From NCBI GenBank assembly GCA_042576225.1, contig JBHPCA010000002.1:529-64528 (forward strand): a stretch of 64,000 nt of DNA, given 5' to 3'. The translations under genes were made by a program, and so were the position numbers. The notes beneath the pieces were generated by a model. The model was given only the letters and a program-made list of their open reading frames with translations. It was not told the DNA's origin and did no database searches. Origin of the DNA: Candidatus Babelota bacterium. GTDB lineage: Bacteria; Babelota; Babeliae; Babelales; Vermiphilaceae. Shown here one piece after another: positions 2,588-32,016 of this stretch (positions are counted from its first letter, which is position 1; every line of letters starts with the position of its first letter).

Positions 2588-4141
2588 TTATGCACTTTTG
2601 AATTTTTTAATCAAGAATGTCTGCAAGACACCCAATCCAACACTTGCAACTATATACAGAGAAAGTCCCGCTGGGAATGTTGCAAATAAAGGCCCTATAA
2701 CCAATGCCATAGCAATCATCATAAATCGTTGCTTTGGATCAACGGTAAATGCCTGTGCCAACATTGCAAGTGACATCAAAGCCGGTAATACGTAATATGG
2801 ATCCTTTGCAGATAAATCTGTTATCCAAAATGCAAATGGCGCCCTGTACATCTCTATAGAACTTCTTAGCAAGTTAGACAAGGCTATAAAAATTGGTATC
2901 TGTATCAACAATGGCAAACAACCACCTAATCCCGGCATGCCATGTCTTTTAATCAACTCAGCCTGCTCTCTTGCAAAAGCCGCCTTGTCGTTTTTATGTT
3001 TTTTCTTAAGATACTCAAGTTTCTTTTGAAACTCCATTCTTTGCTTCATTCCCTTTTCGGCTTTTATCGAAAATGGCAACATCAATAGTCGAATCATCAA
3101 TGTAAGCACAATTATAGCTAAACCATAATTTTTTAGATATTTGTTTAAAAACTTTAAAATCTTTAAAAGGATCTTAGAAATTACAGAAAACCAGCCCGAA
3201 TATTCCAAAGTTTTTTCCAACCTTGGATCAACCATAGCCATAGCGTCTTCTTCTTTTGGCCCAAAATAAAAAGAAACAGTATAAACCTGTTTTTCATTTA
3301 CTGTTGGACCTTCTAAAATAGAAAACAACTTTGTGCCATCTGTAATCTTGTAATAAGCACGCTGCGCATACCCCTGAGGATCCTCGATCATTGCATGCAC
3401 AAAATATTTACTATCAGAACCAAACAACTTTGGCAAATAACTCCCTGTACCGAGAATTTTTTCACTACTCTTAATATTCGTTTTTTGAAATTTTCCTAAT
3501 TTATTAATAATAACAGCAGATATAACATCATTCTTCCCAAGCTCCGGCATAAACGGCGAAGGGTAAAATACCCTTGTCTCCAAGCCTTCTTCAACTTTTT
3601 TCTTAGGCGTCACTGCAAACATCAGATCCATTTTATACGTCTTTTTGTATACAATGAACGTTTTATCCACACTATAATCACTATTAGGCGACTCGTATCT
3701 GTAAAGCACCTGGACCGAATCAGACTTATCTGTTTTACTTATAAACTTATAGTAATAGGGAGTTTTTTCGCTAAACGCAAGCAACAAGCACGTATCGTCT
3801 CTTTGCATATCTGAAACAGGAAAAACTGTACCTAGACCTGCAAGCTTGCCATTTGTCTTACCTTTATACGAAAGCCTATCTAAAGACGCTCCATCACTAG
3901 AGAAAACATAAGTAGCCAAATCCGTCTCAACTTCAGTCAAGACCCTCTCCTGCAGCCTTTTTTCATCTATAAAATCTATCTCTCTGTTTAAAAGCTTTAT
4001 CTCTTGTTTGGACTTGGGCGCAACAAAACCTACAGGACTATCCTGTACTTTTGTGCCCTTACCGCCAAAAAACCAATTCTGTATCAAATAGGTAGCAAGT
4101 AAACCGAGTGCGATTGGGAATACCAGATCTTTTAACTTCAT
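2588..4141 (-). CDS. yidC: membrane protein insertase YidC
   Basis: 517 aa with an N-terminal anchor, a large periplasmic domain and a C-terminal 60-kDa insertase core (YGLAIIVLTLMIRLLMLPFSIK, MPGLGGCLPLLIQIPIFIAL). Confidence 0.9.
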   Translation of the reverse strand: MKLKDLVFPIALGLLATYLIQNWFFGGKGTKVQDSPVGFVAPKSKQEIKLLNREIDFIDEKRLQERVLTEVETDLATYVFSSDGASLDRLSYKGKTNGKLAGLGTVFPVSDMQRDDTCLLLAFSEKTPYYYKFISKTDKSDSVQVLYRYESPNSDYSVDKTFIVYKKTYKMDLMFAVTPKKKVEEGLETRVFYPSPFMPELGKNDVISAVIINKLGKFQKTNIKSSEKILGTGSYLPKLFGSDSKYFVHAMIEDPQGYAQRAYYKITDGTKLFSILEGPTVNEKQVYTVSFYFGPKEEDAMAMVDPRLEKTLEYSGWFSVISKILLKILKFLNKYLKNYGLAIIVLTLMIRLLMLPFSIKAEKGMKQRMEFQKKLEYLKKKHKNDKAAFAREQAELIKRHGMPGLGGCLPLLIQIPIFIALSNLLRSSIEMYRAPFAFWITDLSAKDPYYVLPALMSLAMLAQAFTVDPKQRFMMIAMALVIGPLFATFPAGLSLYIVASVGLGVLQTFLIKKFKSA

Positions 4142-6317: not shown

Positions 6318-7037
6318 CTAAGTTTGGGTATAAATAACGATTTTACAATGCTCTTGCGTCTGCCCAGATGAGGCGAAGGAGCCTCTTTTTTTCAGTTTTT
6401 TTCTTGTGTTTTTTGAGGAATGCAAGCCTGTTTTTGGCACACTTCTTATGGAAATAGAACAAAATCGGAAAGGCTTTTTAAAGATCAATAATTTTTCAAA
6501 CCCATCAAAGCTAGCAACACTTTGCCAGCCCAAGCGCTCCATTTCTTGAGTGTAAAACATGATAATATTGGACATATTCATAGCGTTGGTATACCCAAGC
6601 ACTGTTTGCGCTGTTTGCGCTGCTTGCACTATTCTGTTATTTTCTTGCGCGAGAAGAGTATAAAAATATTCTCTGAGAGGCTCTGAATTGAGGGGGATAG
6701 GAATATCAGATAATTTCGCCTCTTTTTGACGCACAAATTCACTAAAATCTTGAGAAAAATTATGCGAGCTTTGATCTAAACGTTGATTCACATCTGGGGA
6801 ATTAATAGTACTGTTTTTGTTACGATTATTGGCAAACTGCTTTGCCTGACGTTCTGACACAGGAGAGAAAACATCTTTATTCTCCCCTGCGTTATTTTCA
6901 ATATCTTGGTAATCATGTAGGTTACACTGGGAATTAACCTGATTTTTTACTTGAGGTTTATCTCGAATAATCTGCTTTTTACAAGAGCTAATCACAAGTA
7001 TTAAGACAAGAGAAGCCATATGTATAGCCTTGAGCAC
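6318..7037 (-). CDS. hypothetical lipoprotein
   Basis: Signal peptide with a lipobox-like VISSC (MASLVLILVISSCKK). No recognisable domain; Asn/Gln-rich linker. Confidence 0.5.
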   Translation of the reverse strand: MLKAIHMASLVLILVISSCKKQIIRDKPQVKNQVNSQCNLHDYQDIENNAGENKDVFSPVSERQAKQFANNRNKNSTINSPDVNQRLDQSSHNFSQDFSEFVRQKEAKLSDIPIPLNSEPLREYFYTLLAQENNRIVQAAQTAQTVLGYTNAMNMSNIIMFYTQEMERLGWQSVASFDGFEKLLIFKKPFRFCSISIRSVPKTGLHSSKNTRKKLKKRGSFASSGQTQEHCKIVIYTQT

Positions 7038-7062
7038 TACAACCCTCTCAAAACTTAAATTT

Positions 7063-7560
7063 TTATTTTTTTTCTGGCGCTTTTTCTTGCTCTACAGTTT
7101 CTTCAGCAGGATCTTTTGCTGCAACTGGCTTGGCCGGTTTAGCAGAGGCAAGACTTTTAGCCTTTTTCTTTTGAGCTCTAAGCTCTTTTTGCTCTCTTGT
7201 AAGAACTTTTTCTGCGATACGAGCAGCTTTACCAATTCTTTCTCTGATGTAGTAGAGTTTAGCGCGGCGTTTCTTACCACTTCGAATAAATTTTATAGAG
7301 TCGATTAAAGGTGAATAAAAAGGCAACACTCTTTCCACAGGAACAGCATTAGCTCCTATTTTTCTTATGGTAAAAGAACTTGAAGCTCCATTTTTATTCA
7401 TTGCTATAACGTCACCTTCAAAAACCTGTATACGTTCTTTTCCACCTTCTTTAACCCGTAATGAAACAGCTATAAAATCACCGACGTTAAAATCAGGAAA
7501 GTCTCTATCATACATCCCAATTTCTTTTATTGTTTCACGTGTATATTTACTTGCCTTCAT
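7063..7560 (-). CDS. rplS: 50S ribosomal protein L19 with Lys/Ala/Glu-rich C-terminal extension
   Basis: L19 core FNVGDFIAVSLRVKEGGKERIQVFEGDVIA...FTIRKI...VERVLPFYSPLIDSI...RRAKLYYIR, plus about 45 extra C-terminal residues. Confidence 0.92.
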   Translation of the reverse strand: MKASKYTRETIKEIGMYDRDFPDFNVGDFIAVSLRVKEGGKERIQVFEGDVIAMNKNGASSSFTIRKIGANAVPVERVLPFYSPLIDSIKFIRSGKKRRAKLYYIRERIGKAARIAEKVLTREQKELRAQKKKAKSLASAKPAKPVAAKDPAEETVEQEKAPEKK

Positions 7561-18395: not shown

Positions 18396-20171
18396 GTGCA
18401 AAAAAACAAAAACACCGAAAAAATAATTTTTAACTATGCAATCCCAGCCTTGACCATAGCCTCAATTATATTTTTAGGCTCTGCGATAAAAGATAGGTTT
18501 TCAAAAAGCATTGATCAACAAAAAACTGCCCTCTTGCAAACTAGCCAAACTGGGGACAATCTAGAAACCTTAGTCAATCTAGATTATCTTCAAAAGAAAA
18601 TAGAAATTGCAAGCGAGCTCACAAAAAATGGAGCAACCAAAAAAGCGATAGAGTATTATAAAACACTTTTACAATATGAGCGCACTTTTTCGATAATTCA
18701 TTTTAATATCGGCAAACTTTACTCAAATATAAAAAACTTCAAAAAAGCAGAGTACCATTTTAAAAAATCGATCGAACAAAGCCCCAAAAACTCAAATTCT
18801 CATACATTCTTAGGTGTAGCATTACGAAATATGGAACAATATGACGAATCAATAAAACATCTCAAAATAGCTATAAAACTTACTCCAAATTATTTTGACG
18901 CTAATCTACAACTAGGAAAAACGTATCTAGATATGGGAAAAACAATAAAAGCAATAAAATACAGTTATAAAGCAGCAAAACTATCACCAAAGAGCATATA
19001 CCCACATTTAAATATCGCTTATTCATATAACAAACAGGGAAACCTTGAGAAAGCCGTCGAAATTTATCGACAAGTCATTAAAATTGATCCTCAATGCGCC
19101 AATGCACATTACAATCTTGGCTACTCCCTAAAGATTTTAGGAAAACTAAAAGAGGCCGTTACCTTCTTGGACAAAGCAATTTCACTAAAACCCGATTATT
19201 TAGACGCTCACATTGCAAGATCACAATCTAAGATTGCATTACAAAACTTCGATGAGGGTTGGGATGAATATGAATGGCGCTGGGGATTATTCGGCATGGA
19301 TCCACATAAATACAAAGCTGGTATGTGGGACGGCTCCAACATCAAGGGCAAGACTATATTGCTAAGAACAGAACAGGGACTTGGTGACACTATGCAATTC
19401 GTACGTTTGGCAAAACAGGTAAAAGCAATGGGTGCGAAAAAAGTTATCTGTAAAGTACAAAAACCTCTAGTAAAACTGCTTTCAAACTGCGACTTTATTG
19501 ACAAAGTAATACATGATCTTGACGATGCAGGAAAGTATGATCATTATGCCCACCTTATGAGCTTACCAAGAATTTTAAAAATGCAACCTGACACCATCCC
19601 TGCAGAAATCCCATACTTCAAAGCTGATCCAAAATTGGAAAAAGAGTGGCGTGAAAAACTCCAAAAAGATAAAAACTTTAAAATTGGTATCTGCTGGCAT
19701 GTTGACCCAGTTCATGAGGAAACAAAATCGCCCTGGTCACTCCGGTCGGTCAACTTAAAACAGCTCAAGCCTTTTGCAAAACTAAAAAATGTTACCTTCT
19801 ACAGCTTACAAAAACTTCAGGATCAACAACAACTTGCACTCGTTCCTGAGGGGATGAACTTCCAACATTTCGGCCCTGATTTTGACAAGAAAAATGGTAG
19901 CTTCATGGACAGCTCAGCAATTATAAAAAGCTTAGATCTTGTTGTCACAGTTGATACCTGCGTTGCTCACCTTGCCGGCGCTTTGGGCAAAGAAGTATGG
20001 ATGCTACTTCCATATTCACCAGATTGTCGCTGGTACCTCAACACTGATAAAACTCCTTGGTATCCAACCATGACACTCTTTAGACAGGATAAACCACAAA
20101 GTTGGGATAGTGTAATAAATAAAATCGCAACATCACTTGAAAAAGAGATTAAAAAACATAAAACAACGTAA
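18396..20171 (+). CDS. TPR-repeat / GT9-like glycosyltransferase paralog 4
   Basis: GTG start and N-terminal anchor IIFNYAIPALTIASIIFLGSAI, with TPR units. Motifs: GLGDTMQFVRLAK, FKIGICWHV, YSLQK, FGPDFD..GSFMDSSAIIKSLDLVVTVDTCVAHLAGALG, CRWY, TPWYPTMTLFRQ. Confidence 0.75.
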   Translation: MQKNKNTEKIIFNYAIPALTIASIIFLGSAIKDRFSKSIDQQKTALLQTSQTGDNLETLVNLDYLQKKIEIASELTKNGATKKAIEYYKTLLQYERTFSIIHFNIGKLYSNIKNFKKAEYHFKKSIEQSPKNSNSHTFLGVALRNMEQYDESIKHLKIAIKLTPNYFDANLQLGKTYLDMGKTIKAIKYSYKAAKLSPKSIYPHLNIAYSYNKQGNLEKAVEIYRQVIKIDPQCANAHYNLGYSLKILGKLKEAVTFLDKAISLKPDYLDAHIARSQSKIALQNFDEGWDEYEWRWGLFGMDPHKYKAGMWDGSNIKGKTILLRTEQGLGDTMQFVRLAKQVKAMGAKKVICKVQKPLVKLLSNCDFIDKVIHDLDDAGKYDHYAHLMSLPRILKMQPDTIPAEIPYFKADPKLEKEWREKLQKDKNFKIGICWHVDPVHEETKSPWSLRSVNLKQLKPFAKLKNVTFYSLQKLQDQQQLALVPEGMNFQHFGPDFDKKNGSFMDSSAIIKSLDLVVTVDTCVAHLAGALGKEVWMLLPYSPDCRWYLNTDKTPWYPTMTLFRQDKPQSWDSVINKIATSLEKEIKKHKTT

Positions 20172-20206
20172 TAACACAAAACAAAAACTCGTGCGAAAAA
20201 TAGATT

Positions 20207-20239
20207 AAAAAAAGGCCCCGGAAATCCGGGGCCTTTTTT
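20207..20239. terminator. bidirectional intrinsic terminator between the convergent glycosyltransferase and beta-helix blocks
   Basis: Perfect 8-bp GC stem ggccccgg (20214-20221) / ccggggcc (20226-20233) with loop aaat. Flanked by an A-run (20207-20213) and a T-run (20234-20239). Confidence 0.8.
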
Positions 20240-20254
20240 AAGTCTATTGCTAGC

Positions 20255-21922
20255 TCATACATTTGCAACTTTGTTTTTCTCAACAACGCATTTGTTCACC
20301 GTCGTAGCCAATTTTACAATTTCCACTCGTCCAGTATCTTTCTTCTCAACCTTCGTAATCCCTGCAACAGCAACAAATTTACCACAATTTGACCATTCAT
20401 TAAAAATAGCAACATTCAGTCCATCTTTAAATTCAAAATTCGTCAAAGGCGTCAAGAATGGACTCAATAATGAATTGAACGCGTAGAGTTTATTAGAGCC
20501 AGCACTTGATGTTAACAATGTCTTGCCATCTGGTGACCAGCTTACAGCAGTTAAATTAGCATCATTGCCTGCAAAAATTTCAGTCAACGTATCTGCCGAG
20601 GCCAGATACTCATAAACCCTTGGAAGATCATTAGTGCCGGTAGCTACAATACAATATTTTTCACGGGATGCTATTGGATTCCATTTTGCCTTTGCAATGC
20701 CTGCTCCTCCTATGCTTACGCTCGCCAGACCCGTCAATGGTATAGTTTTGGCAACATGCATCATCGATGTACTTTTATCACCATACACAACAAACTTATC
20801 ATCTGGTGCTACATCAAGCATTATTAGGTCATTTGTATCACCCAATAATTTACGCTCTGCCAAAACAAGCTTTATTCCATTGAAAGACAATCTCACAAGT
20901 TTCGCCGACTCAGGGCCCCCAGCAACATTCAAATATGAGTAATTATAAGCATAATTACTCCCCCCATCACTATTACCGGTAATAACAAAATTTTTACCTT
21001 CAGTTGTCGCAAAAAGTTGCTTTCCATCATGCGACCAAGCTAACCGGAGAATCCGATCTGGTGCGCTTGTTGTACCTGCAGACGTCGGATGATTGCCAAA
21101 ATAAATTGCTTCCCCAGAAGATAGAGTAGACGCAACTTCATAAGTACGATTGCCAGGAAGAGGTGTGCCATCAAGGAACTCAGCAACTTTGGTTCCTTTA
21201 TTATCCGCCGCCCTAATCGTAGAAACTGGATTATATGCACTTACCATCTTTACACCTGTACGTACACCAGAAACCAATTTCAATGATCCACGATCAAACT
21301 TGTATACCAAAACTTCTTTATCTTTATCTGCGGTACTAACAAAGGTTATAAATTCTGAAGAAACAAGTTCATAACTTCCATCTTCTTTCCTTTTACCCTT
21401 ATAAACTTCAACCGGACCTAAATTATTTGTCCCAACGGCCAAGTACTGGCCGTCTGGTGACCATGCAACGGCATTAACCGCTCTATTGAACGAAACAGTT
21501 TGAACCTCGTAAAGTTTGGCGCCGTCAAATCTTAATATTCGCAATTTATAATCTTCTTTACCAATTGTTGAAATAGCTAAATAACTGCAATTTGGAGACC
21601 AATCAAAATCTGTTAACAATTTACCGGGTTCTGCTTGATACGCCGTTATAAACTTGGTTTTCGAAAGCTTCATGTCAAGACCAACACCCTTGCGGCAATT
21701 TGATACTCTCAAATCTTTTAAGATAACTCTTTTTGTTCCTGATTTCGACGCATCATTTTTTATAATCACATCTTCCACATTTTCGTCTATGACAACAAGT
21801 GGATCTGAGCCACTACTACCAGATGACATTATCGTTTGCCCATTCAGGTTGGAAGAAATAAAAAAATAAAAAAATATTACAAAAAATGTAAGCTTCTTAT
21901 TACACAAAAAACTTTGCTTCAT
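20255..21922 (-). CDS. truncated paralog of the beta-helix/beta-propeller family (propeller retained, helix core and C-tail missing)
   Basis: 555 aa with a signal-like N-terminus and repeated W-S-P-D/N-G/C blade motifs. Collinear with residues about 95-130 and 300-765 of the 851-aa neighbour. Stops right after VVEKNKVANV, where the paralogs continue. Could be a decaying copy. Confidence 0.6.
   Translation of the reverse strand: MKQSFLCNKKLTFFVIFFYFFISSNLNGQTIMSSGSSGSDPLVVIDENVEDVIIKNDASKSGTKRVILKDLRVSNCRKGVGLDMKLSKTKFITAYQAEPGKLLTDFDWSPNCSYLAISTIGKEDYKLRILRFDGAKLYEVQTVSFNRAVNAVAWSPDGQYLAVGTNNLGPVEVYKGKRKEDGSYELVSSEFITFVSTADKDKEVLVYKFDRGSLKLVSGVRTGVKMVSAYNPVSTIRAADNKGTKVAEFLDGTPLPGNRTYEVASTLSSGEAIYFGNHPTSAGTTSAPDRILRLAWSHDGKQLFATTEGKNFVITGNSDGGSNYAYNYSYLNVAGGPESAKLVRLSFNGIKLVLAERKLLGDTNDLIMLDVAPDDKFVVYGDKSTSMMHVAKTIPLTGLASVSIGGAGIAKAKWNPIASREKYCIVATGTNDLPRVYEYLASADTLTEIFAGNDANLTAVSWSPDGKTLLTSSAGSNKLYAFNSLLSPFLTPLTNFEFKDGLNVAIFNEWSNCGKFVAVAGITKVEKKDTGRVEIVKLATTVNKCVVEKNKVANV
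20260..21675. repeat. segmental duplication, copy 1 (pairs with 22224-23640)
   Basis: Constant offset of 1964 nt. In the 120 nt compared by eye (20521-20640 vs 22485-22604) there are 10 mismatches. Boundaries are approximate. Confidence 0.7.
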
Positions 21923-21990
21923 AATTCATCCCTTTTTTGTTTTTAATTAGACAGCTCTACTCACAGTTTACTATTCACCATGCAATCCCA

Positions 21991-24546
21991 CTACTGCACG
22001 CACCCACATTCGCAAATTGCAGGAATGCAACTGCATGGACAACCAGCGCAGCCTTCATTTGCATACAAATTATCAAGAAGGCCAGGAAAACCCATCAAAT
22101 TATATCGATGTCTTGCGTACACACCTTCACTGTATGGCACACCGCTACAACAAACCATGTTGGCATCTATCAAGTTACAACACCCACCGCCAAAGATGCC
22201 AATGCCGCAAAAACCACCGCACACATTTGCGATCTTGTTTTTCTCAACAACACACTTGTTAACCGTTGTAGCCAATTGAACAATTTCCACTTGCCCTGTA
22301 TCTTCCGCCTCAACCGTCGCAAGCCCCGCAATAGCAACAAATTTACCACAACTTGACCAACCGTTAAAAGTCGCAACATTCAGTCCATCTTGAAATTCAA
22401 AATTCGTCAAAGGCGTCAAAACTGGACTCAATGATGGATTGAACGCATAAAGCTTATTAGAACCAGCCCTTGATGTTAACAATGTCTTGCCATCAGGAGA
22501 CCAGTTTACAGCAGTCAAATTAGCATCATTGCCTGCAAAAATTTCAGTCAACGTATCTTCTGAAGCCTGGTACTCATAAACCCTTGGAAGATCATCAGTG
22601 CCGGTAGCTACAATACAATATTTTTCACAGCATGCAATTGGATTCCACTTTGCCTTTGCAATGCCTGCTCCTCCTATGCTTACGCTCGCAAGACCCGTCA
22701 ATGGTATCGTTTTAGCAATATGAATCATCGAGGTACTTTTATCACCATACATAACGAATTTATCATCTGGTGCTACATCAAGTATTATTAAATCATTCGT
22801 ATCACCCAATAATTTACGCTCTGCCAAAACAAGTTTTGTTCCATCAAAAGACAATCTCACAAGTTTTGCCGACTCATCAATAGCTGGATCAACATCCAAA
22901 TATGAGTAATCATAAGCATAATTACCCCCGCCATCAGTATTGGTAATAAGTAAATCTTTACCTTCAGTTGTCGCAAAAAGTTGCCTTCCATCATGCGACC
23001 AGGCTACCCGAAGAATCCTATCTGGTGCGTTTGTTGTACCTGCAGGTGTCGGATGGTTACCAAAATAAGTTATTTCCCCAGAAGATGGAATAGGCACAAC
23101 TACAGGAGTAAGATTACCAGGAAGAGGTGTGCCATCAAAGGACTCCAAAAGCGCAGTACCAGCATTGTCTGCTACTCTAATCGTAGAAACCGAATCATAT
23201 GCACTTACCATCTGCACACCTGTACGTGCACCAGAAACTAATTCCAATGATCCACAATCAAACTTATATACTAAAATTTCCTTATCTTTATCTGCAGTAC
23301 TAACAAAGGTTATAAATTCTAAAGAAGCAGGCCCATAACTTCCATCATCTTGTCTCTCGCTTATATACACTTCAACTGGGCCTAAATTATTTGTCCCAAC
23401 AGCCAAGTACTGGCCATCTGGGGACCATGCAACTGCATTAACCGCTCTATTGAACGAAATAGTTTGAACCTCGTAAAGTTTTACGCCGTCAAATCTTAAT
23501 ATTCGCAATTTATAGTCGTCTGTGTCAATTGTTGCAATAGCTAAATGCTTGCAATTTGGGGACCAATCTAAATCTGTTAATTTTTTACCCGGTTCTGCTT
23601 GATATGCTGTTATAAACTTGGTTTGTGAAAGCTTCATATCCAGATAAATACCATATGCATTACCCCAGCTTGCAGTCTTGATAGAATCTATGCAGCAGTT
23701 TATAATTTTTGATTCCGTTTCTGGCGTATCATCTTTGTAACCAAACCTAAAACCGGCTGCTTTTGTGCAAAAATCACTATTTACACATTTTGCAATATCT
23801 TCTACAAAACATTCATAAAACAAATTATCTAGACCCCCAAGAGAGATAAATCCATACGCACTGCCTACTTGATTAGTATTACTTACCCCTAATACTTTAC
23901 ACTGCTCAAATTTATTATATTTACAACTATCTAAATCAAAGCCAGTATATTCACAACAACATACAACTGTATCTTTGAAAATACATTTTTCTGCATAATC
24001 CAAATCAACTGCAATGCTACAAGTTTTTATGTGGCAATTTTGGACCCTACAGCAGACAACCTCACTTCCTGACTCACCTGCAAAATCAATACCTTTGTAG
24101 CAATCTGATATTCTCAAATTTTTTAAAATAACTCTTTTTGCTCCTGCTTTCAACTGTATACCAGTATCAATACAGTTCCCAACAATTGCACCATTTTTTA
24201 TAATCACATCTTCTACGTTTTCATCTATTACAACCAATGGATCTGAACTGCTACTGGATGCCGTTATCGTATGCCCATTCAGATCAATTATCACTTTATT
24301 TGCAGTAACCAAAAGCGTTGCACTTGTGATATTCTCATAGAGCCCATACGAACCATCTTTGTCTATCACATTGTTGGCAGTGTCTTTGATAATATTGTGC
24401 ACAGGATCCATAGAGTGTAACATAGCCAACAAACGACTACCATTTGTAAGATCCATACATGCCGCAGAAAAAACCCTGGAAGAAAAAGATGAAAAAAGTA
24501 GCAAGGCAAACACCATTACCCTACTATAGGGAAACTTGTACTTCAT
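21991..24546 (-). CDS. secreted Cys-rich parallel beta-helix protein with embedded beta-propeller (paralog 2, Cys-rich tail)
   Basis: 851 aa starting with the MKYKFP signal peptide. PbH1-like turns with a Cys ladder (VVCCRVQNCHIKTCSIAVDLDYAEKCIFKDTVVCCCEYTGFDLDSCKYNKFEQCKV). Blades DWSPNCKHLAIAT, VAWSPDGQYLAVGT, VAWSHDGRQLFATT, VNWSPDGKTLLTS. Returns to helix turns at NKIANVCGGFCGIGIF. Tail ends CAGCPCSCIPAICECGCVQ. Confidence 0.7.
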   Translation of the reverse strand: MKYKFPYSRVMVFALLLFSSFSSRVFSAACMDLTNGSRLLAMLHSMDPVHNIIKDTANNVIDKDGSYGLYENITSATLLVTANKVIIDLNGHTITASSSSSDPLVVIDENVEDVIIKNGAIVGNCIDTGIQLKAGAKRVILKNLRISDCYKGIDFAGESGSEVVCCRVQNCHIKTCSIAVDLDYAEKCIFKDTVVCCCEYTGFDLDSCKYNKFEQCKVLGVSNTNQVGSAYGFISLGGLDNLFYECFVEDIAKCVNSDFCTKAAGFRFGYKDDTPETESKIINCCIDSIKTASWGNAYGIYLDMKLSQTKFITAYQAEPGKKLTDLDWSPNCKHLAIATIDTDDYKLRILRFDGVKLYEVQTISFNRAVNAVAWSPDGQYLAVGTNNLGPVEVYISERQDDGSYGPASLEFITFVSTADKDKEILVYKFDCGSLELVSGARTGVQMVSAYDSVSTIRVADNAGTALLESFDGTPLPGNLTPVVVPIPSSGEITYFGNHPTPAGTTNAPDRILRVAWSHDGRQLFATTEGKDLLITNTDGGGNYAYDYSYLDVDPAIDESAKLVRLSFDGTKLVLAERKLLGDTNDLIILDVAPDDKFVMYGDKSTSMIHIAKTIPLTGLASVSIGGAGIAKAKWNPIACCEKYCIVATGTDDLPRVYEYQASEDTLTEIFAGNDANLTAVNWSPDGKTLLTSRAGSNKLYAFNPSLSPVLTPLTNFEFQDGLNVATFNGWSSCGKFVAIAGLATVEAEDTGQVEIVQLATTVNKCVVEKNKIANVCGGFCGIGIFGGGCCNLIDANMVCCSGVPYSEGVYARHRYNLMGFPGLLDNLYANEGCAGCPCSCIPAICECGCVQ
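22224..23640. repeat. segmental duplication, copy 2 (pairs with 20260-21675)
   Basis: See copy 1. Covers the propeller-coding part of the 851-aa gene. Confidence 0.7.
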
Positions 24547-24592
24547 TAGGTCTCCTTTTAATTTAAGTTATTAATATTTAAATAATTATCAA

Positions 24593-26701
24593 TTAATATG
24601 GGGGTATTGAAACGTTATAATGTAATTGATCAATGCCTACAAGACCACAATACCAAACATTGAGCACTTTTTGTGAGAAACTCAAGTCACATTCGTAACA
24701 GATATTTTTCAATATCGAGTTACAATCACTAGAGCCAAATATTCCAATACCGCCTAGACCACCAGTAACATTTGCAACTTTATTGTTATACACAACACAC
24801 TTAGTAGGAGCAATACCAACTTCAATAATATTGAAGTTAGGAATAATTGATCCATCATCGCCACCAAATACCAAGAAATTACCTGACGGAGACCAATCAA
24901 GACCGCCTTGGCTAACCTGTATACCAAGTGATTTTGAGTACACAAGAGAAATTACCGGACTTACGGATGGATCAAACTTGTATACACCAACAGTTCCATT
25001 AGTTGCAAATACTGCAAAATAGTTACCATTAGGCGCCCATTTTATTCTCAATACAGTATCATCAAAAAGCGCTGCGCCTCCAAATACCAAATCTATCCCA
25101 TCAAATGAATAAACATTTATATTTGCAGTTGCCCCAGTTCCAACAGCAACAAGATAATATTTGCCATTACATGCAATTGGACACCACTGCACATCATTTA
25201 TCCCTGTCAAACCGGTTGATGTGTCTGATGCAACTTGTACAGTTGAAAATGGTATATGCGTTTTCCAATCTCTTACAAACAAGTCTCCAGTTGCGTATGA
25301 TCCAAAGGCTATAAATTTCTCATCTGGAGTAATATCTGGATTTGTTAAATCAGTTAACCCCGTGTCAATTCCTGCACCTGAATTTGCAACATTTGTCAAA
25401 GTACCATCAACCTTGTAAACATCAATAAAAGCTCCGCCCCTGATATACACAACATATTTTCCGCTTCTAAACCAGACAGGATCGGAAACATCTACATCTG
25501 GGTTATCACCCATTATCAGCCCATAAAGCGTATCATACACAACAACTTCATCGTCTTGCCCTGAAAGCGCCCCTATAGCCAAATACCTTCCAGTAGGATC
25601 CCACTCAATATGTCGCTTGTCGTTAGAGGTGGTAGTTAAACTACTAACCTCATGCCATGTCTTACAATTAAAGTCTAATATTTTTACAGGTCCAGCACTT
25701 ATTCCCTCTGAAGCCTCACCTGAGAAAACAATCGCTATCTTATCCCCAAGGGGCGACCATGAAATATCTGCTATAGAATCTTCAAAATTACTTAATATTG
25801 CCGGGCACCCTGATGCAGGGTCTGCAATAAGTGTGCTTTTGAATACCGACTCCAGAATTATACCATACGCATTACCCAACTCTGCGCCGGTTAAAGAATC
25901 TACCAGGCAATTTATAATCTTTGACTCTGTTTCACCTGCATCCTCCCCTGTTGAGGCAAATCTAAATCCTATAGCATCTTTCCCAAATTCACTTGCTGAT
26001 TTGTAAATTCCCTCTGCCATACACTCAAAGAAAAGATTATCTTGACCACTTATGGCAGAAAAACCTACGGCCTGCTTATCTGCAAAAGAACTTCCAGTTC
26101 TAATAGCTTTACACTTTTTTATTTTGTTGTACTTGGATTTTGTAAAAACAAAGCCACCTTCTGTACAACAACAACTTTCACAATTTTCAAACACACAATT
26201 CATTGCAAAATCAATTGAAAAACCAAAAGAAGAATCTGCTACAAAACAATTTGTAACTTTACAACATCGAACATATTTATCAATTGCACCAGAAAAAGCT
26301 ATACCAGTAGAACAGTTTGCTACATTGAGATCTTGAATAACAATATTCTGCGCGCTGTCATCAATTAATACACCAGTATTAACCTGGTCGCTACCAAAAA
26401 TTGATCCATTCTGTATAACAATATTTTTTTGACCTTCACCTACATTAAACACAGAAGTCTTTGCAGCATTCCCTGATACAGTAAAACCTTTAAGGTTTAT
26501 CAAGACATTATCTGCATTAACCGTTATGTCCCCTGTTATATTTTCTATAACATGATATGAACCTGGTTCTGTGATTATCGTTGTCCCGTTTTTAATTATT
26601 TGATGCGCAGGACCAACACCAAATAGGTTTATCTGGCTTATCTGAGAAAATATCGTAGAACAAAAAGATAAAAGAAGAAGTATAGGTATTTTGTACTTCA
26701 T
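24593..26701 (-). CDS. secreted Cys-rich parallel beta-helix protein with embedded beta-propeller (paralog 3, SIPPY C-terminus)
   Basis: 702 aa starting with the MKYKIP signal peptide. Helix turns (VRCCKVTNCFVADSSFGFSIDFAMNCVFENCESCCCTEGGFVFTKSKYNKIKKCKA) and the family motif ETESKIINCLVDS. Blades ISWSPLGDKIAIV, IEWDPTGRYLAIG, IKWAPNGNYFAVF, LDWSPSGNFLVFG. Ends NKVANVTGGLGGIGIF...VSIPPY. Confidence 0.7.
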   Translation of the reverse strand: MKYKIPILLLLSFCSTIFSQISQINLFGVGPAHQIIKNGTTIITEPGSYHVIENITGDITVNADNVLINLKGFTVSGNAAKTSVFNVGEGQKNIVIQNGSIFGSDQVNTGVLIDDSAQNIVIQDLNVANCSTGIAFSGAIDKYVRCCKVTNCFVADSSFGFSIDFAMNCVFENCESCCCTEGGFVFTKSKYNKIKKCKAIRTGSSFADKQAVGFSAISGQDNLFFECMAEGIYKSASEFGKDAIGFRFASTGEDAGETESKIINCLVDSLTGAELGNAYGIILESVFKSTLIADPASGCPAILSNFEDSIADISWSPLGDKIAIVFSGEASEGISAGPVKILDFNCKTWHEVSSLTTTSNDKRHIEWDPTGRYLAIGALSGQDDEVVVYDTLYGLIMGDNPDVDVSDPVWFRSGKYVVYIRGGAFIDVYKVDGTLTNVANSGAGIDTGLTDLTNPDITPDEKFIAFGSYATGDLFVRDWKTHIPFSTVQVASDTSTGLTGINDVQWCPIACNGKYYLVAVGTGATANINVYSFDGIDLVFGGAALFDDTVLRIKWAPNGNYFAVFATNGTVGVYKFDPSVSPVISLVYSKSLGIQVSQGGLDWSPSGNFLVFGGDDGSIIPNFNIIEVGIAPTKCVVYNNKVANVTGGLGGIGIFGSSDCNSILKNICYECDLSFSQKVLNVWYCGLVGIDQLHYNVSIPPY

Positions 26702-26748
26702 TAGGTCTCCTTTTAATTAAAAGTTAGTGTTACACTATAAACTACACC

Positions 26749-29304
26749 TTAGCTGCAAAATGACGTACAGCAGAAACCTTCAAACGCCAAGTTGTCTAGT
26801 GGTCTTGGCTTGATAAACATATTTGAAACTTTCATGTCATAGAACGTGTTAAACACACCTTCACTTGCATTCACACCATTTCCTGATAGCAAGTTTTTGT
26901 CTATTAAATTGCAACAGCCTGGAGCCATGATTCCAATTGCACACAATCCACCGGAAACATTTGCAACCTTGTTGTTTTGCACCACACAGTTCATGACACA
27001 TATTCCAGCTGATATAACTTCAATGTTTGTCGAATAAAGCTGCTGAATATCGCCCGCCATAACAATAAACCTTCCGCATGGTGACCAATCTAGCCATTTA
27101 TCACCTGAAATTCGAGGGGTAGGAATATAATCTACATAAGTAAGTACCGAACTCGCAGAAAGAGAAGGATCAAAATCGTATTTAATAAGTGTTGTACCCG
27201 TTACTACAAGGCTCTTGCCGTCAGGCGCCCATTTCACATCAGTCAAATCAGCATCTATATCTTCTACAGTCAATGATGTAAGTGCATTGTTTATATAATT
27301 ATACTCAAACACTTCTAAGTTCTGAGCAGGACTCCCTGCATACCCAACCACTGCTAAATAATACTTGTCACGAGATGCGATTGGATTCCAATCTGCATTC
27401 TTAACACTGGTACCGGAAGTTAAGTTGTCAGCTAATACATCTACGGTACCGTAGAACTTTGCAAAACTAGCAATATTTAATGTATTTATCTTTTCCGACA
27501 AGCCATAAACCAATCCATTATCATCCGGCGTGAGGGCCAAAGCTTTAGAAGAATTTGTCACATCAACAACTCTATTTTCAACCAAATTCAGGTTTGCACC
27601 GTCAAATGTAAAGTTAACAAGTTTTGCTTCTTCAGTAACATCGAAATTTAAATATGTATAGACAGCATAATTAGAGGTTGTGCCTATTTGCAGATTAGTA
27701 TTGCTCGAAATAACCGTATTTTTTCCGCCCTTCGTTGTCACAAAAATATGTCTTCCATCACGAGACCAAACTATACGTAAAATATCATCTGGGGCCTTTG
27801 CCTGCCCAAGCTCAATTGGCTTATTTTGAATATATGATCCTACCTCACTAGTCTTCAAAGTCCTTATAGGGCCAGGAAGACCTGGGGTTGTAACAATAGT
27901 TGGAGTTGATATCGTAGAATAATAAGATTCAGAAAGAACCTGAGTATCTCCATCATAAATCGTAACATCATTTATACCAACATGCTCATCATCAACTAAG
28001 GTCAATAACTCAGAATCAAACCGATAAACCAAAAGTTCTTTTTTTACATTATGCAAAAAAGTCACAGTATGCAGATTGTCCACCTGCTGGCTAGAATCAG
28101 ATATCCAGGATACCCAAGCTTGTCTACTTTCAATTTCAGCAAAACCATCTGTACCAACTGCCAAGTGGTGACCATCTGGTGCCCACGCAACAGCATTAGC
28201 CGGTATGCTTACAATATCAGTAATACCTGAATCAGCAGGATTCGTAATTACCTTCAACTCAACTCTATCAACCTCTCGCAAGGTTTGGCCATCAAAATGC
28301 AAAACCCTTACTGTACCATCTGAGCACGCAATTGCGACGTAATCACCTTGTGGCGACCAATCAACATCGTTTATAACATCATCAAAAAGACCGGCTGTAA
28401 CACTTGTAAGCAAACTTGATGCTTTACCCTCCAAGTAAATACCAAACGCATTGCCAAATCCTGCACCGGCAACAGAGTCAACACAGCAATCTATAATTTT
28501 AGACTCTCTTTCTTCGACAATATTGCTCTCTGATCTGTAACCGAGCACAAAACCCATCGCTTTTGTAAACCAATCACTATCAACTTTATAGATACCCTCT
28601 GCCATACACTCATAAAACAGGTTATCCCAACCACTCAAAGCAGCAAAGCCATATGCATTAGAGTCTGCCGTATCATGCCCTATTCTTATTGCTTTACATT
28701 GTTTAAATTTATTGTACTTACAATTTTCTAAATGAAACCCATATTTACACTCGCAAACCTCACAATCTTTAAAGACACAATTGTTAGCGTAAGCCATGAA
28801 TAAACCGTAGTCGCAACCTGTTACAACACAGTTTCTAACCAAGCAACATTCAATAGGAGTTCCCTCAAAGCCACCAAGGTATATTGCTTTATCTCCGCCA
28901 TAGATCTTTAGATTCTCTAGAATTACGTTTTTTACCCCTAAATATAACTGTACACCTTCATAAGCACCGGAAGTAATTATCGTACCATTTCTTATTATGA
29001 CATTTTGATGTCCAGGCTCTATTCTTATCACATCTCTATCATGATATTCTATGGTAAATCCATTCAGTTCAACAATAACATTGTCAACATCAACCGTAAT
29101 ATTACCTATTATATTTTCTATAAGGTGATACGAACCTGGCTTTGTTATTACTGTTTCAACGCCATTTTTAATAATGGTACTCTCTGGCTGCATTGAATTC
29201 ATGAGAGACAATAACGGATTGCCTTTGTTAAAATCTAAACATGTTTTGGTAAAAACCGAAAACGTAAACAATAAAAGAAGAAGTATAGGAATTTTGTACT
29301 TCAT
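26749..29304 (-). CDS. secreted Cys-rich parallel beta-helix protein with embedded beta-propeller (paralog 4, Cys-rich tail)
   Basis: 851 aa starting with the MKYKIP signal peptide. Motifs ERESKIIDCCVDSV, VDWSPQGDYVAIACSDGTVRVLHFDG, VAWAPDGHHLAVGTDG, IVWSRDGRHIFVTTKGGK, VKWAPDGKSLVVTGT, NKVANVSGGLCAIGIM. Tail ends FEGFCCTSFCS. Confidence 0.7.
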   Translation of the reverse strand: MKYKIPILLLLLFTFSVFTKTCLDFNKGNPLLSLMNSMQPESTIIKNGVETVITKPGSYHLIENIIGNITVDVDNVIVELNGFTIEYHDRDVIRIEPGHQNVIIRNGTIITSGAYEGVQLYLGVKNVILENLKIYGGDKAIYLGGFEGTPIECCLVRNCVVTGCDYGLFMAYANNCVFKDCEVCECKYGFHLENCKYNKFKQCKAIRIGHDTADSNAYGFAALSGWDNLFYECMAEGIYKVDSDWFTKAMGFVLGYRSESNIVEERESKIIDCCVDSVAGAGFGNAFGIYLEGKASSLLTSVTAGLFDDVINDVDWSPQGDYVAIACSDGTVRVLHFDGQTLREVDRVELKVITNPADSGITDIVSIPANAVAWAPDGHHLAVGTDGFAEIESRQAWVSWISDSSQQVDNLHTVTFLHNVKKELLVYRFDSELLTLVDDEHVGINDVTIYDGDTQVLSESYYSTISTPTIVTTPGLPGPIRTLKTSEVGSYIQNKPIELGQAKAPDDILRIVWSRDGRHIFVTTKGGKNTVISSNTNLQIGTTSNYAVYTYLNFDVTEEAKLVNFTFDGANLNLVENRVVDVTNSSKALALTPDDNGLVYGLSEKINTLNIASFAKFYGTVDVLADNLTSGTSVKNADWNPIASRDKYYLAVVGYAGSPAQNLEVFEYNYINNALTSLTVEDIDADLTDVKWAPDGKSLVVTGTTLIKYDFDPSLSASSVLTYVDYIPTPRISGDKWLDWSPCGRFIVMAGDIQQLYSTNIEVISAGICVMNCVVQNNKVANVSGGLCAIGIMAPGCCNLIDKNLLSGNGVNASEGVFNTFYDMKVSNMFIKPRPLDNLAFEGFCCTSFCS

Positions 29305-29393
29305 TAGGTCTCCTTTTAATTAAAAGTTAGTATTGCATCATAAATCACACAAAACTATACACTACTACAAAATGCTCGCACAGTACTAAATTC

Positions 29394-31910: not shown

Positions 31911-32016
31911 TAGATCTCCTTTTAATTAGAAAATTAGTGTTTAGCTTAACTTACACAAAAATATACAATACTTTACATTACTAGGTTTAGGGTACACAAG
32001 TTAAAATAAAAAATCA

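Follow-up and report, generated by a model that had tools for sequence, protein, structure and literature searches.

A Babelota beta-helix/propeller gene cut back, in frame, to a probable free-standing WD40 propeller

Described relatives and the array

The nearest structural relatives of the protein discussed here, P0001, are seven-blade WD40 propellers (PF00400): WDR91, Sec12, G-beta, TLE1, and a bacterial WD40 domain from Thermomonospora (5yzv). These domains are ~10% identical to P0001 in sequence, and the matches carry over no partner and no function. They are also smaller—~300–340 residues, against 475 for the P0001 propeller, the difference being due to long loop insertions—and they are cytosolic, whereas P0001 begins with a putative signal peptide and is probably exported.

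In genetic behavior, the closest parallels are the surface-protein families of obligate intracellular bacteria, the Sca autotransporters of rickettsias and the Pmp proteins of chlamydias, in which truncated and split paralogs occur. These, likewise, are exported beta-helix proteins, encoded in tandem or dispersed in reduced genomes and subject to lineage-specific shortening. P0001 differs from them in lacking an autotransporter barrel and Pmp motifs. It differs, too, in the manner of its shortening, which appears to be a clean in-frame excision that spared one whole domain under purifying selection, rather than a frameshifted fragment.

Closest of all is a beta-helix/propeller family of the Dependentiae, with which P0001 shares its array, strand, leader position and homologous propeller. 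The family seems to occur in no other phylum, and its proteins probably work at the contact with the protist host. The members used below are P0002–P0016; related arrays occur on contigs L035, L037 and L039. P0001 is shorter than every one of them. They have a ~250-residue beta-helix with a ladder of cysteines; in P0001 the core of this helix is deleted and ~57 residues are left. All of them continue beyond the propeller with rung-like sequence (NK[IV]ANxxGGxxGIGI...) and end in a cysteine cluster or in IPPY; P0001 has none of these, and stops just past NKVANV. The others contain 22–38 cysteines, and P0001 contains six; compared with its neighbor P0002, 32 of 38 are gone.

The source is a draft genome of 1.33 Mb in 70 contigs, 93.6% complete, from which a stretch of 64,000 nucleotides (C2:529-64528, GC ~37%), called the window here, was analysed. 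The genome fits a protist-dependent TM6/Dependentiae lineage. Interaction domains of eukaryote type, WD40 among them, are known from Dependentiae genomes (PMC4776705). The comparison set comprised 40 related genomes of 0.8–1.7 Mb, one of them from the same genus.

P0001 is encoded by the last gene of a tight array of five on the minus strand, separated by spacers of 46–89 nt (Table 1). The array converges on a TPR-glycosyltransferase operon and shares an intrinsic terminator with it. This terminator is part of a palindrome, recovered by inverted-repeat search, that starts 6 nt past the P0001 stop codon, and it is the only strong terminator-like site between 19900 and 32400. No Rfam family matched anywhere in 19800–24800. 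The locus is syntenic with those of relatives, whose arrays converge in the same way. The closest relative is L035, the TPR-glycosyltransferase of which is 71% identical to the last one of the window; the last gene of its array, P0006, is full-length (757 aa) and has a terminator 14 nt past the stop. The L037 array has the same layout, and its terminal gene is P0011. Since both of these arrays end in full-length genes, the extra, truncated terminal copy is, as far as these sequences indicate, specific to the present genome.

Table 1. The array, its terminal gene and the flanking elements, in window coordinates
Feature	Position	Strand	Description
P0005	29394-31910	-	838 aa; array gene
P0004	26749-29304	-	851 aa; array gene
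P0003	24593-26701	-	702 aa; array gene
P0002	21991-24546	-	851 aa; full-length sister and upstream neighbor of P0001
P0002 parts	21991..24546	-	Signal peptide; beta-helix, ~50-300; propeller, ~303-762; 2-3 rung-like strands; Cys-rich tail
P0001-P0002 spacer	21923..21990	-	68 nt; contains, in diverged form, the translation leader conserved in the array
P0001	20255-21922	-	555 aa; ORF, terminal array gene
Putative Sec-type signal peptide, diverged	21851..21922	-	MKQSFLCNKKLTFFVIFFYFFISS; from hydrophobicity and homologous position
Beta-helix remnant, ~two rungs	21680..21850	-	P0001 residues 25-81 (57 residues); three deletion junctions
WD40-type beta-propeller, complete, with long loop insertions	20258..21679	-	P0001 residues 82-555; from Pfam, AlphaFold2 and Foldseek
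TGA stop	20255..20257	-	Homology ends here: GTA TGA G vs GTG TGC G (P0002)
Bidirectional intrinsic terminator	20199..20248	.	14-bp G+C-rich stem, 20208-20239, within a palindrome with arms of 24 nt

Truncation relative to the full-length sister

The four full-length proteins of the array, P0002–P0005, are built to one plan, in which a signal peptide is followed by a right-handed beta-helix, then by a WD40 propeller, and last by a C-terminal segment. Pfam matches of the helix to NosD and Beta_helix are weak, and rise above threshold in P0004 only. The C-terminal segment opens with NK(V/I)ANxxGGxxGIGI and closes with the cysteine cluster or IPPY. In the AlphaFold2 model of P0002 (pLDDT 76.7, pTM 0.73) the helix is very confident and the propeller confident; past the propeller come three-residue strands, at 766–805, of moderate confidence, and the Cys-rich end is disordered. 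Because short strands and rung-like sequence follow the propeller, the model suggests a chain that rejoins the helix, with the propeller inserted in it. Profile comparison of the tail with the helix rungs gave a weak match (P = 0.044), and it is mainly the short-strand pattern of the P0002 model that points to a tail continuing the helix.

Positions 21688-20256 align with 23652-22220 in 1,436 columns (1,433 nt) at 86.5% identity, by blastn and repeat search, and BLASTP gives 81% identity between the P0001 propeller, residues 82-555, and residues 302-775 of P0002. A preliminary description of this DNA, made from the letters alone, had taken P0001 for a recent duplicate of its 851-aa neighbor that had lost its helix core and C-terminal tail. 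Duplicate it is: pairwise alignment of 20255-21922 with 21991-24546 is collinear, the junctions bear out the loss of helix and tail, and the tally given there, 10 mismatched positions in 120 nt (20521-20640 vs 22485-22604), is exact. The offset between the two, given there as a constant 1964 nt, has this value in the propeller, apart from a short interval at 1967, bounded by two one-codon indels that compensate each other; in the N-terminal blocks it is 2405 (82% identity) and 2435–2438 (83–85%). ‘Recent’, on the other hand, does not survive a synonymous divergence (dS) of 0.32 and a nucleotide identity of 86.5%. By these sequences the duplication is the youngest event within the array, yet an old one, a dS of 0.32 being substantial.

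Four segments of P0002 are missing from P0001: 63 codons immediately past the signal peptide (P0002 residues 24–87; junction 21851|21850), 11 codons further on (P0002 ~residues 120–131; junction near 21746|21745), 147 codons of helix core (junction within codons 79–81, 21680-21688), and the 76-codon tail together with the old 3′ untranslated region. The lengths balance: 63 + 11 + 147 + 76 - 1 = 296 = 851 - 555. The ~155 residues of helix core thought earlier to have gone in one piece are thus really absent, but went in two deletions, one of 147 codons and one of 11; the core junction quoted at that time, KRVILKDLRVSNCRKGVGLDMKL versus KRVILKNLRISDCYKGIDF...GIYLDMKL, stands in the protein alignment. 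Each of the six internal indels has a length divisible by three, for which the odds by chance are (1/3)^6, or ~0.1%, and in the models the two large cuts fall within ~10 residues or less of the first and last strands of the propeller, the first of which spans P0001 residues 84–96. At both ends of the 147-codon deletion the sequence A(A/T)GGTATT(G/T)AT lies in equivalent rungs (YKGI and AYGI), and the GGTATT microhomologies give this loss the apparent signature of slippage or microhomology deletion. As a group, the deletions seem to be single events, illegitimate or based on microhomology. The earlier statement that the array is actively recombining finds no support here: the two copies have diverged evenly along the gene, and no mosaic left by conversion shows up (max chi-square p = 0.057).

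At the 3′ end, as noted before, everything past ...VVEKNKVANV is gone: TGA comes directly there, where P0002 reads on as CGGFCGIGI. The 15-nt stretch that separates the TGA from the terminator bears no significant likeness to the 3′ end of P0002 (p = 0.58), and its similarity to the 3′ end of P0006 is confined to the terminator tract. Recoding of this TGA was considered and ruled out; TGA ends eight of the 37 long ORFs in the window, an ordinary stop codon here, and translation past it would meet the terminator.

At the 5′ end, the N-terminal ~80 residues were said to be missing and to have been replaced by a different signal-like peptide. Sixty-three codons are indeed absent. The signal peptide, however, looks diverged rather than foreign, since it occupies the homologous place, and since P0001 and P0002 both keep CTAATTAAAAA...ATGAAG in the leader and start, and TTTCTTCCA just ahead of the first junction. 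The region has diverged far more than the remainder of the gene—8/24 residues are identical to P0002, and synonymous sites are near saturation—and neither for it and the leader, nor for the 3′ flank as far as the neighboring gene, was a significant match found that would give another source in the genome. Judged by eye and by hydrophobicity, P0001 has a putative signal sequence: the n-region is positively charged, and the core reaches a maximal 11-residue Kyte–Doolittle value of 2.55, against 2.47–2.89 in four paralogs. Translation signals have fared less well. The start codon is kept, but the array leader TAATTAAAAGGAGACCTAATGAAGTACAA, near-identical in the other four genes, has decayed in P0001, where AAGGGA (21929-21934) takes the place of the Shine–Dalgarno sequence AAGGAG. 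The predicted duplex with the anti-Shine–Dalgarno sequence is -5.1 kcal/mol for P0001 and -8.7 for the other four.

What was left of the helix is in poor condition. The two-rung remnant between signal peptide and propeller is modelled as disordered (pLDDT <50 for residues 1–81), has lost family-conserved residues, among them the glycine of a turn (G57D), and matches the family at 11 of 22 conserved columns, compared with 17 of 22 in P0002; lineage-resolved changes in it number nine and one, respectively. P0001 has no Beta_helix or NosD match in Pfam, and lacks the E(T/R)ESKII(N/D)C motif. From the propeller, two paired conserved cysteines (CC to SR) and a third Cys have disappeared; the domain is complete. 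It scores 47.2 bits against PF00400 (cut-off 27) and 48 bits against PF12894 (cut-off 22.9), and in the AlphaFold2 model of P0001 (pTM 0.78; pLDDT mostly 75–96 over residues 82–545) it equals the P0002 propeller in confidence. In Foldseek searches with the propellers of both proteins, the top matches were seven-blade WD40 domains (TM ~0.65–0.8 by target length; for P0001, 0.65–0.78, with E 1e-11 to 1e-13). These models give P0001, with confidence, a closed propeller fold of four-stranded blades, of the seven-blade type.

Free propellers of this kind are otherwise missing from what we searched. Neither 5.8 billion protein clusters nor 1.84 billion representatives contained a propeller-only relative of P0001; in the latter library the entire propeller is covered by a single match in four other proteins, where it starts at residue 310–340, past a helix. 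Scans of metagenome and genome contigs for the truncated gene returned no close match, and it was not found in the 40 related genomes, the same-genus member of which is without the family altogether. Within the family, the P0001 propeller is of the same long type as those of P0004, P0005, P0009, P0010 and P0012, and is 33–39% identical across its whole length to the first four of these. An older swap of propeller modules, predating the duplication that gave rise to P0001 and P0002, is moderately supported by these sequences.

Constraint, decay and other readings

Is P0001 a gene or the remains of one? The preliminary description left the choice between a propeller-only derivative and a decaying copy. 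The derivative fits the data better, and with a probability of roughly 0.6 we take the P0001 gene to be intact and probably expressed, to encode a free-standing WD40 propeller that is exported, and to be functional under relaxed constraint. The main competing reading, less probable by our estimate though far from negligible, is that it is a relic which lost its function recently, with the deletion of helix and tail, and whose frame has stayed open through the shortness of the time or through carriage as the last cistron. Much about P0001 is as a relic would have it. It is truncated relative to every other member of the family, its helix remnant is decaying and disordered in the model, its conserved leader and Shine–Dalgarno site are degraded, and conserved cysteines are gone. 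Among the sequences searched, the propeller-only form is found in this genome alone. Its protein sequence, moreover, has changed faster than that of its sister. By majority rule, with the other members as outgroups, 48 amino-acid changes in the whole protein fall to P0001 and 21 to P0002, 19 and 3 of them in the first 80 residues and 29 and 18 in the propeller. Maximum-likelihood branch lengths for the propeller are 0.18–0.22 and 0.035–0.061, and Tajima-type counts are ~1.1–3.7 to 1 with most outgroups, and 9:0 with P0006 and 13:0 with P0007. Altogether, the P0001 propeller has changed 1.6–6 times faster than that of P0002. Whether differences between the two are enriched in loops relative to strands was also examined, and the result was not significant.

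Against a relic, and above all against a long dead phase, stand low dN/dS, a clean frame and the sparing of conserved positions. Over the 474 codons of the propeller the Nei–Gojobori estimates are dS 0.32 and dN 0.098, so that the dN/dS between the copies, which had been proposed earlier as a check, is 0.30 (bootstrap 0.21–0.41), not near 1; had one copy been neutral since the duplication, a pairwise value of at least 0.5 would be expected, and even the upper bound, 0.41, falls short of this. There is no frameshift or internal stop in 555 codons, the indels are all in frame, and the cuts lie at domain boundaries. The record at NCBI lists a 555-aa product, and P0001 was thus called as a coding sequence there. 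When 94 substitutions were simulated under neutrality, 6.5% of runs kept the propeller frame open; for a neutral phase of the length needed to cover the extra amino-acid changes, the figure would be ~5%, with indels uncounted. Among propeller columns conserved in 13 other members, P0001 matches 72 of 108 and P0002 76 of 108 (34/43 and 35/43 at the strictest level), and from these counts together with the lineage comparisons above we derive that conserved positions changed ~2.5 times less often than others. If synonymous changes are split evenly between the two lineages, omega would be ~0.4–0.5 for P0001 and 0.1–0.2 for P0002, values to be read with distant outgroups and saturated synonymous sites in mind. 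Purifying selection on the P0001 propeller thus appears to persist, relaxed roughly 2–5 fold relative to P0002. Two further readings concern the history of the copy rather than its condition, and we consider both improbable. P0001 might be an older truncated paralog whose propeller was homogenised by gene conversion from P0002, in which case the 86% identity dates no duplication. The excessive divergence of the signal region would be explained by this, and exchange of modules is seen deeper in the family. Signal peptides, however, commonly evolve fast, the helix-remnant blocks, at 82–85%, are about as similar as the propeller, and over the 1,587 aligned nt identity per 150 nt runs from 77 to 92%, so even along the gene that there is no sign of later conversion and no significant mosaic. 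That the copy, or its deletions, came from misassembly of a repeat array in a metagenome-assembled genome is the least likely reading of all, even for a draft in 70 contigs. The copies differ at 13.5% of positions, which is not how a collapsed or duplicated repeat behaves; the microhomologies at the junctions, at most 6–9 nt, are far below assembler word sizes; and frame, Shine–Dalgarno site and terminator form a coherent whole.

A propeller without its helix

If P0001 is the functional gene that we favor, its history might have run as follows. The terminal beta-helix/propeller gene of the array would have been duplicated in tandem, the copies now standing at a synonymous divergence of ~0.32. 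In several steps, in-frame deletions would then have stripped the host helix of all its segments: the N-terminal cap, the 11 codons, the 147-codon core, and the C-terminal rungs together with the Cys-rich tail. A signal peptide, a decaying linker of ~57 residues and a complete propeller would have been left over. Loss of helix and tail together makes structural sense if the tail is stacked against the helix, an arrangement that the P0002 model suggests. The gene would be co-transcribed with its neighbors, as the last cistron ahead of the terminator, translated from a weakened Shine–Dalgarno site, and its product exported by the Sec route.

What such a protein might do can be guessed from its parts. 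A propeller freed in this way would keep its ligand-binding face without the helical scaffold and, by analogy with other propellers, would bind a protein or glycan partner. Off the scaffold, it would act as a soluble binder or competitor rather than as part of a fibre, and it may compete with P0002 or complement it. That selection has kept the liberated propeller as a soluble binder of, or competitor for, the ligand of P0002, whether this belongs to the host or to a partner, is a tentative proposal to which we give rather less credence than to function as such.

Duplication followed by loss of a domain is an ordinary evolutionary event, known in this instance from one draft genome, and P0001 is a tidy but unsurprising case of it. 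Its interest lies in what was removed. P0001 amounts to a natural deletion experiment, in which all of the discontinuous segments of the helix were taken out and the propeller was left complete and, it seems, under selection, which speaks for a propeller able to fold and work by itself. Residues 25–555 or 82–555 of P0001 offer a small, soluble construct with which to search for the ligands of the family. If the tentative proposal of a shared ligand is true, this would be a case of domain liberation, and the propeller inserted in the helix would be the autonomous, ligand-binding, working part of a large, uncharacterised family of the Dependentiae.

Module make-up of a full-length neighbour

Set against related proteins from the array and from other Dependentiae (P0004–P0013), P0002, the full-length neighbour of the truncated gene P0001, resembles a mosaic of modules. 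Its helix and tail are nearest to those of P0006 and P0007 (60% and 66–68% identity; clade support 100/99), two other family members. Its propeller is of the long type found in P0004, P0005, P0009, P0010 and P0012, and is excluded from the clade formed by the propellers of P0006, P0007, P0011 and P0013. Congruent placements of P0002 were rejected by AU tests (p = 0.024 and p = 0.016), although these were post hoc and the stem branch is long. The conflict between helix/tail and propeller placements suggests that the inserted propeller of P0002 was acquired in an old exchange between paralogs.

Short shared tracts: a cysteine pair and a leader

The propeller motif WNPIACC contains a conserved vicinal cysteine pair that is replaced by Ser-Arg in P0001 and also in the array gene P0004, reflecting either convergence or a very short conversion tract. 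All four full-length array genes have in common a near-identical leader, TAATTAAAAGGAGACCTA and then ATGAAGTACAA, although their proteins share just 27–40% identity among themselves; only the truncated P0001 has lost this leader. Such a leader would be either under strong selection, perhaps for translational control, or homogenised.

Features of the array and of its relatives
Feature	Gene or locus	Position	Detail
Mosaic-like gene	P0002	window 21991-24546	
Ser-Arg for Cys pair	P0001, codons 419-420	window 20681-20686	TCC CGT
Ser-Arg for Cys pair	P0004, codons 644-645	window 27385-27390	TCT CGT
Leader copies	four full-length genes	24547-24575, 26702-26730, 29305-29333, 31911-31939	minus strand
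Double-unit ORF	P0008, another Dependentiae		917 aa, partial
Double-unit ORFs	C20, C48, contigs of P0001's own genome		1277-1645 aa
GIY-YIG genes	L035, related Dependentiae array	6830-7560	90-122 aa (all GIY-YIG genes)
GIY-YIG genes	L039, related Dependentiae array	557-829, 3766-4134	
CC/CxC ending	P0004, P0009, P0010, P0012, P0014		…FCCTSFCS, …DVCC, …NICC, …SGCC
IPPY ending	P0003, P0005, P0015, P0016		…IPPY

Fusions, endings and intervening genes

Some relatives carry two helix units within a single ORF. In P0008, one unit ends in its Cys-rich tail and the following unit begins at once with its N-terminal cap, no signal peptide intervening, a junction which implies that adjacent array genes are sometimes fused. 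The extreme C-terminus of the family takes one of two forms after a common LDN(L/I) motif, a terminal CC/CxC cluster or IPPY, neither of which is present in P0001; these endings may be sorting or modification signals.

Small GIY-YIG genes lie between or downstream of array genes in related Dependentiae. The one in L035 is flanked on both sides by inverted repeats of ~90 nt, and resembles a small mobile element with these array loci as its target.
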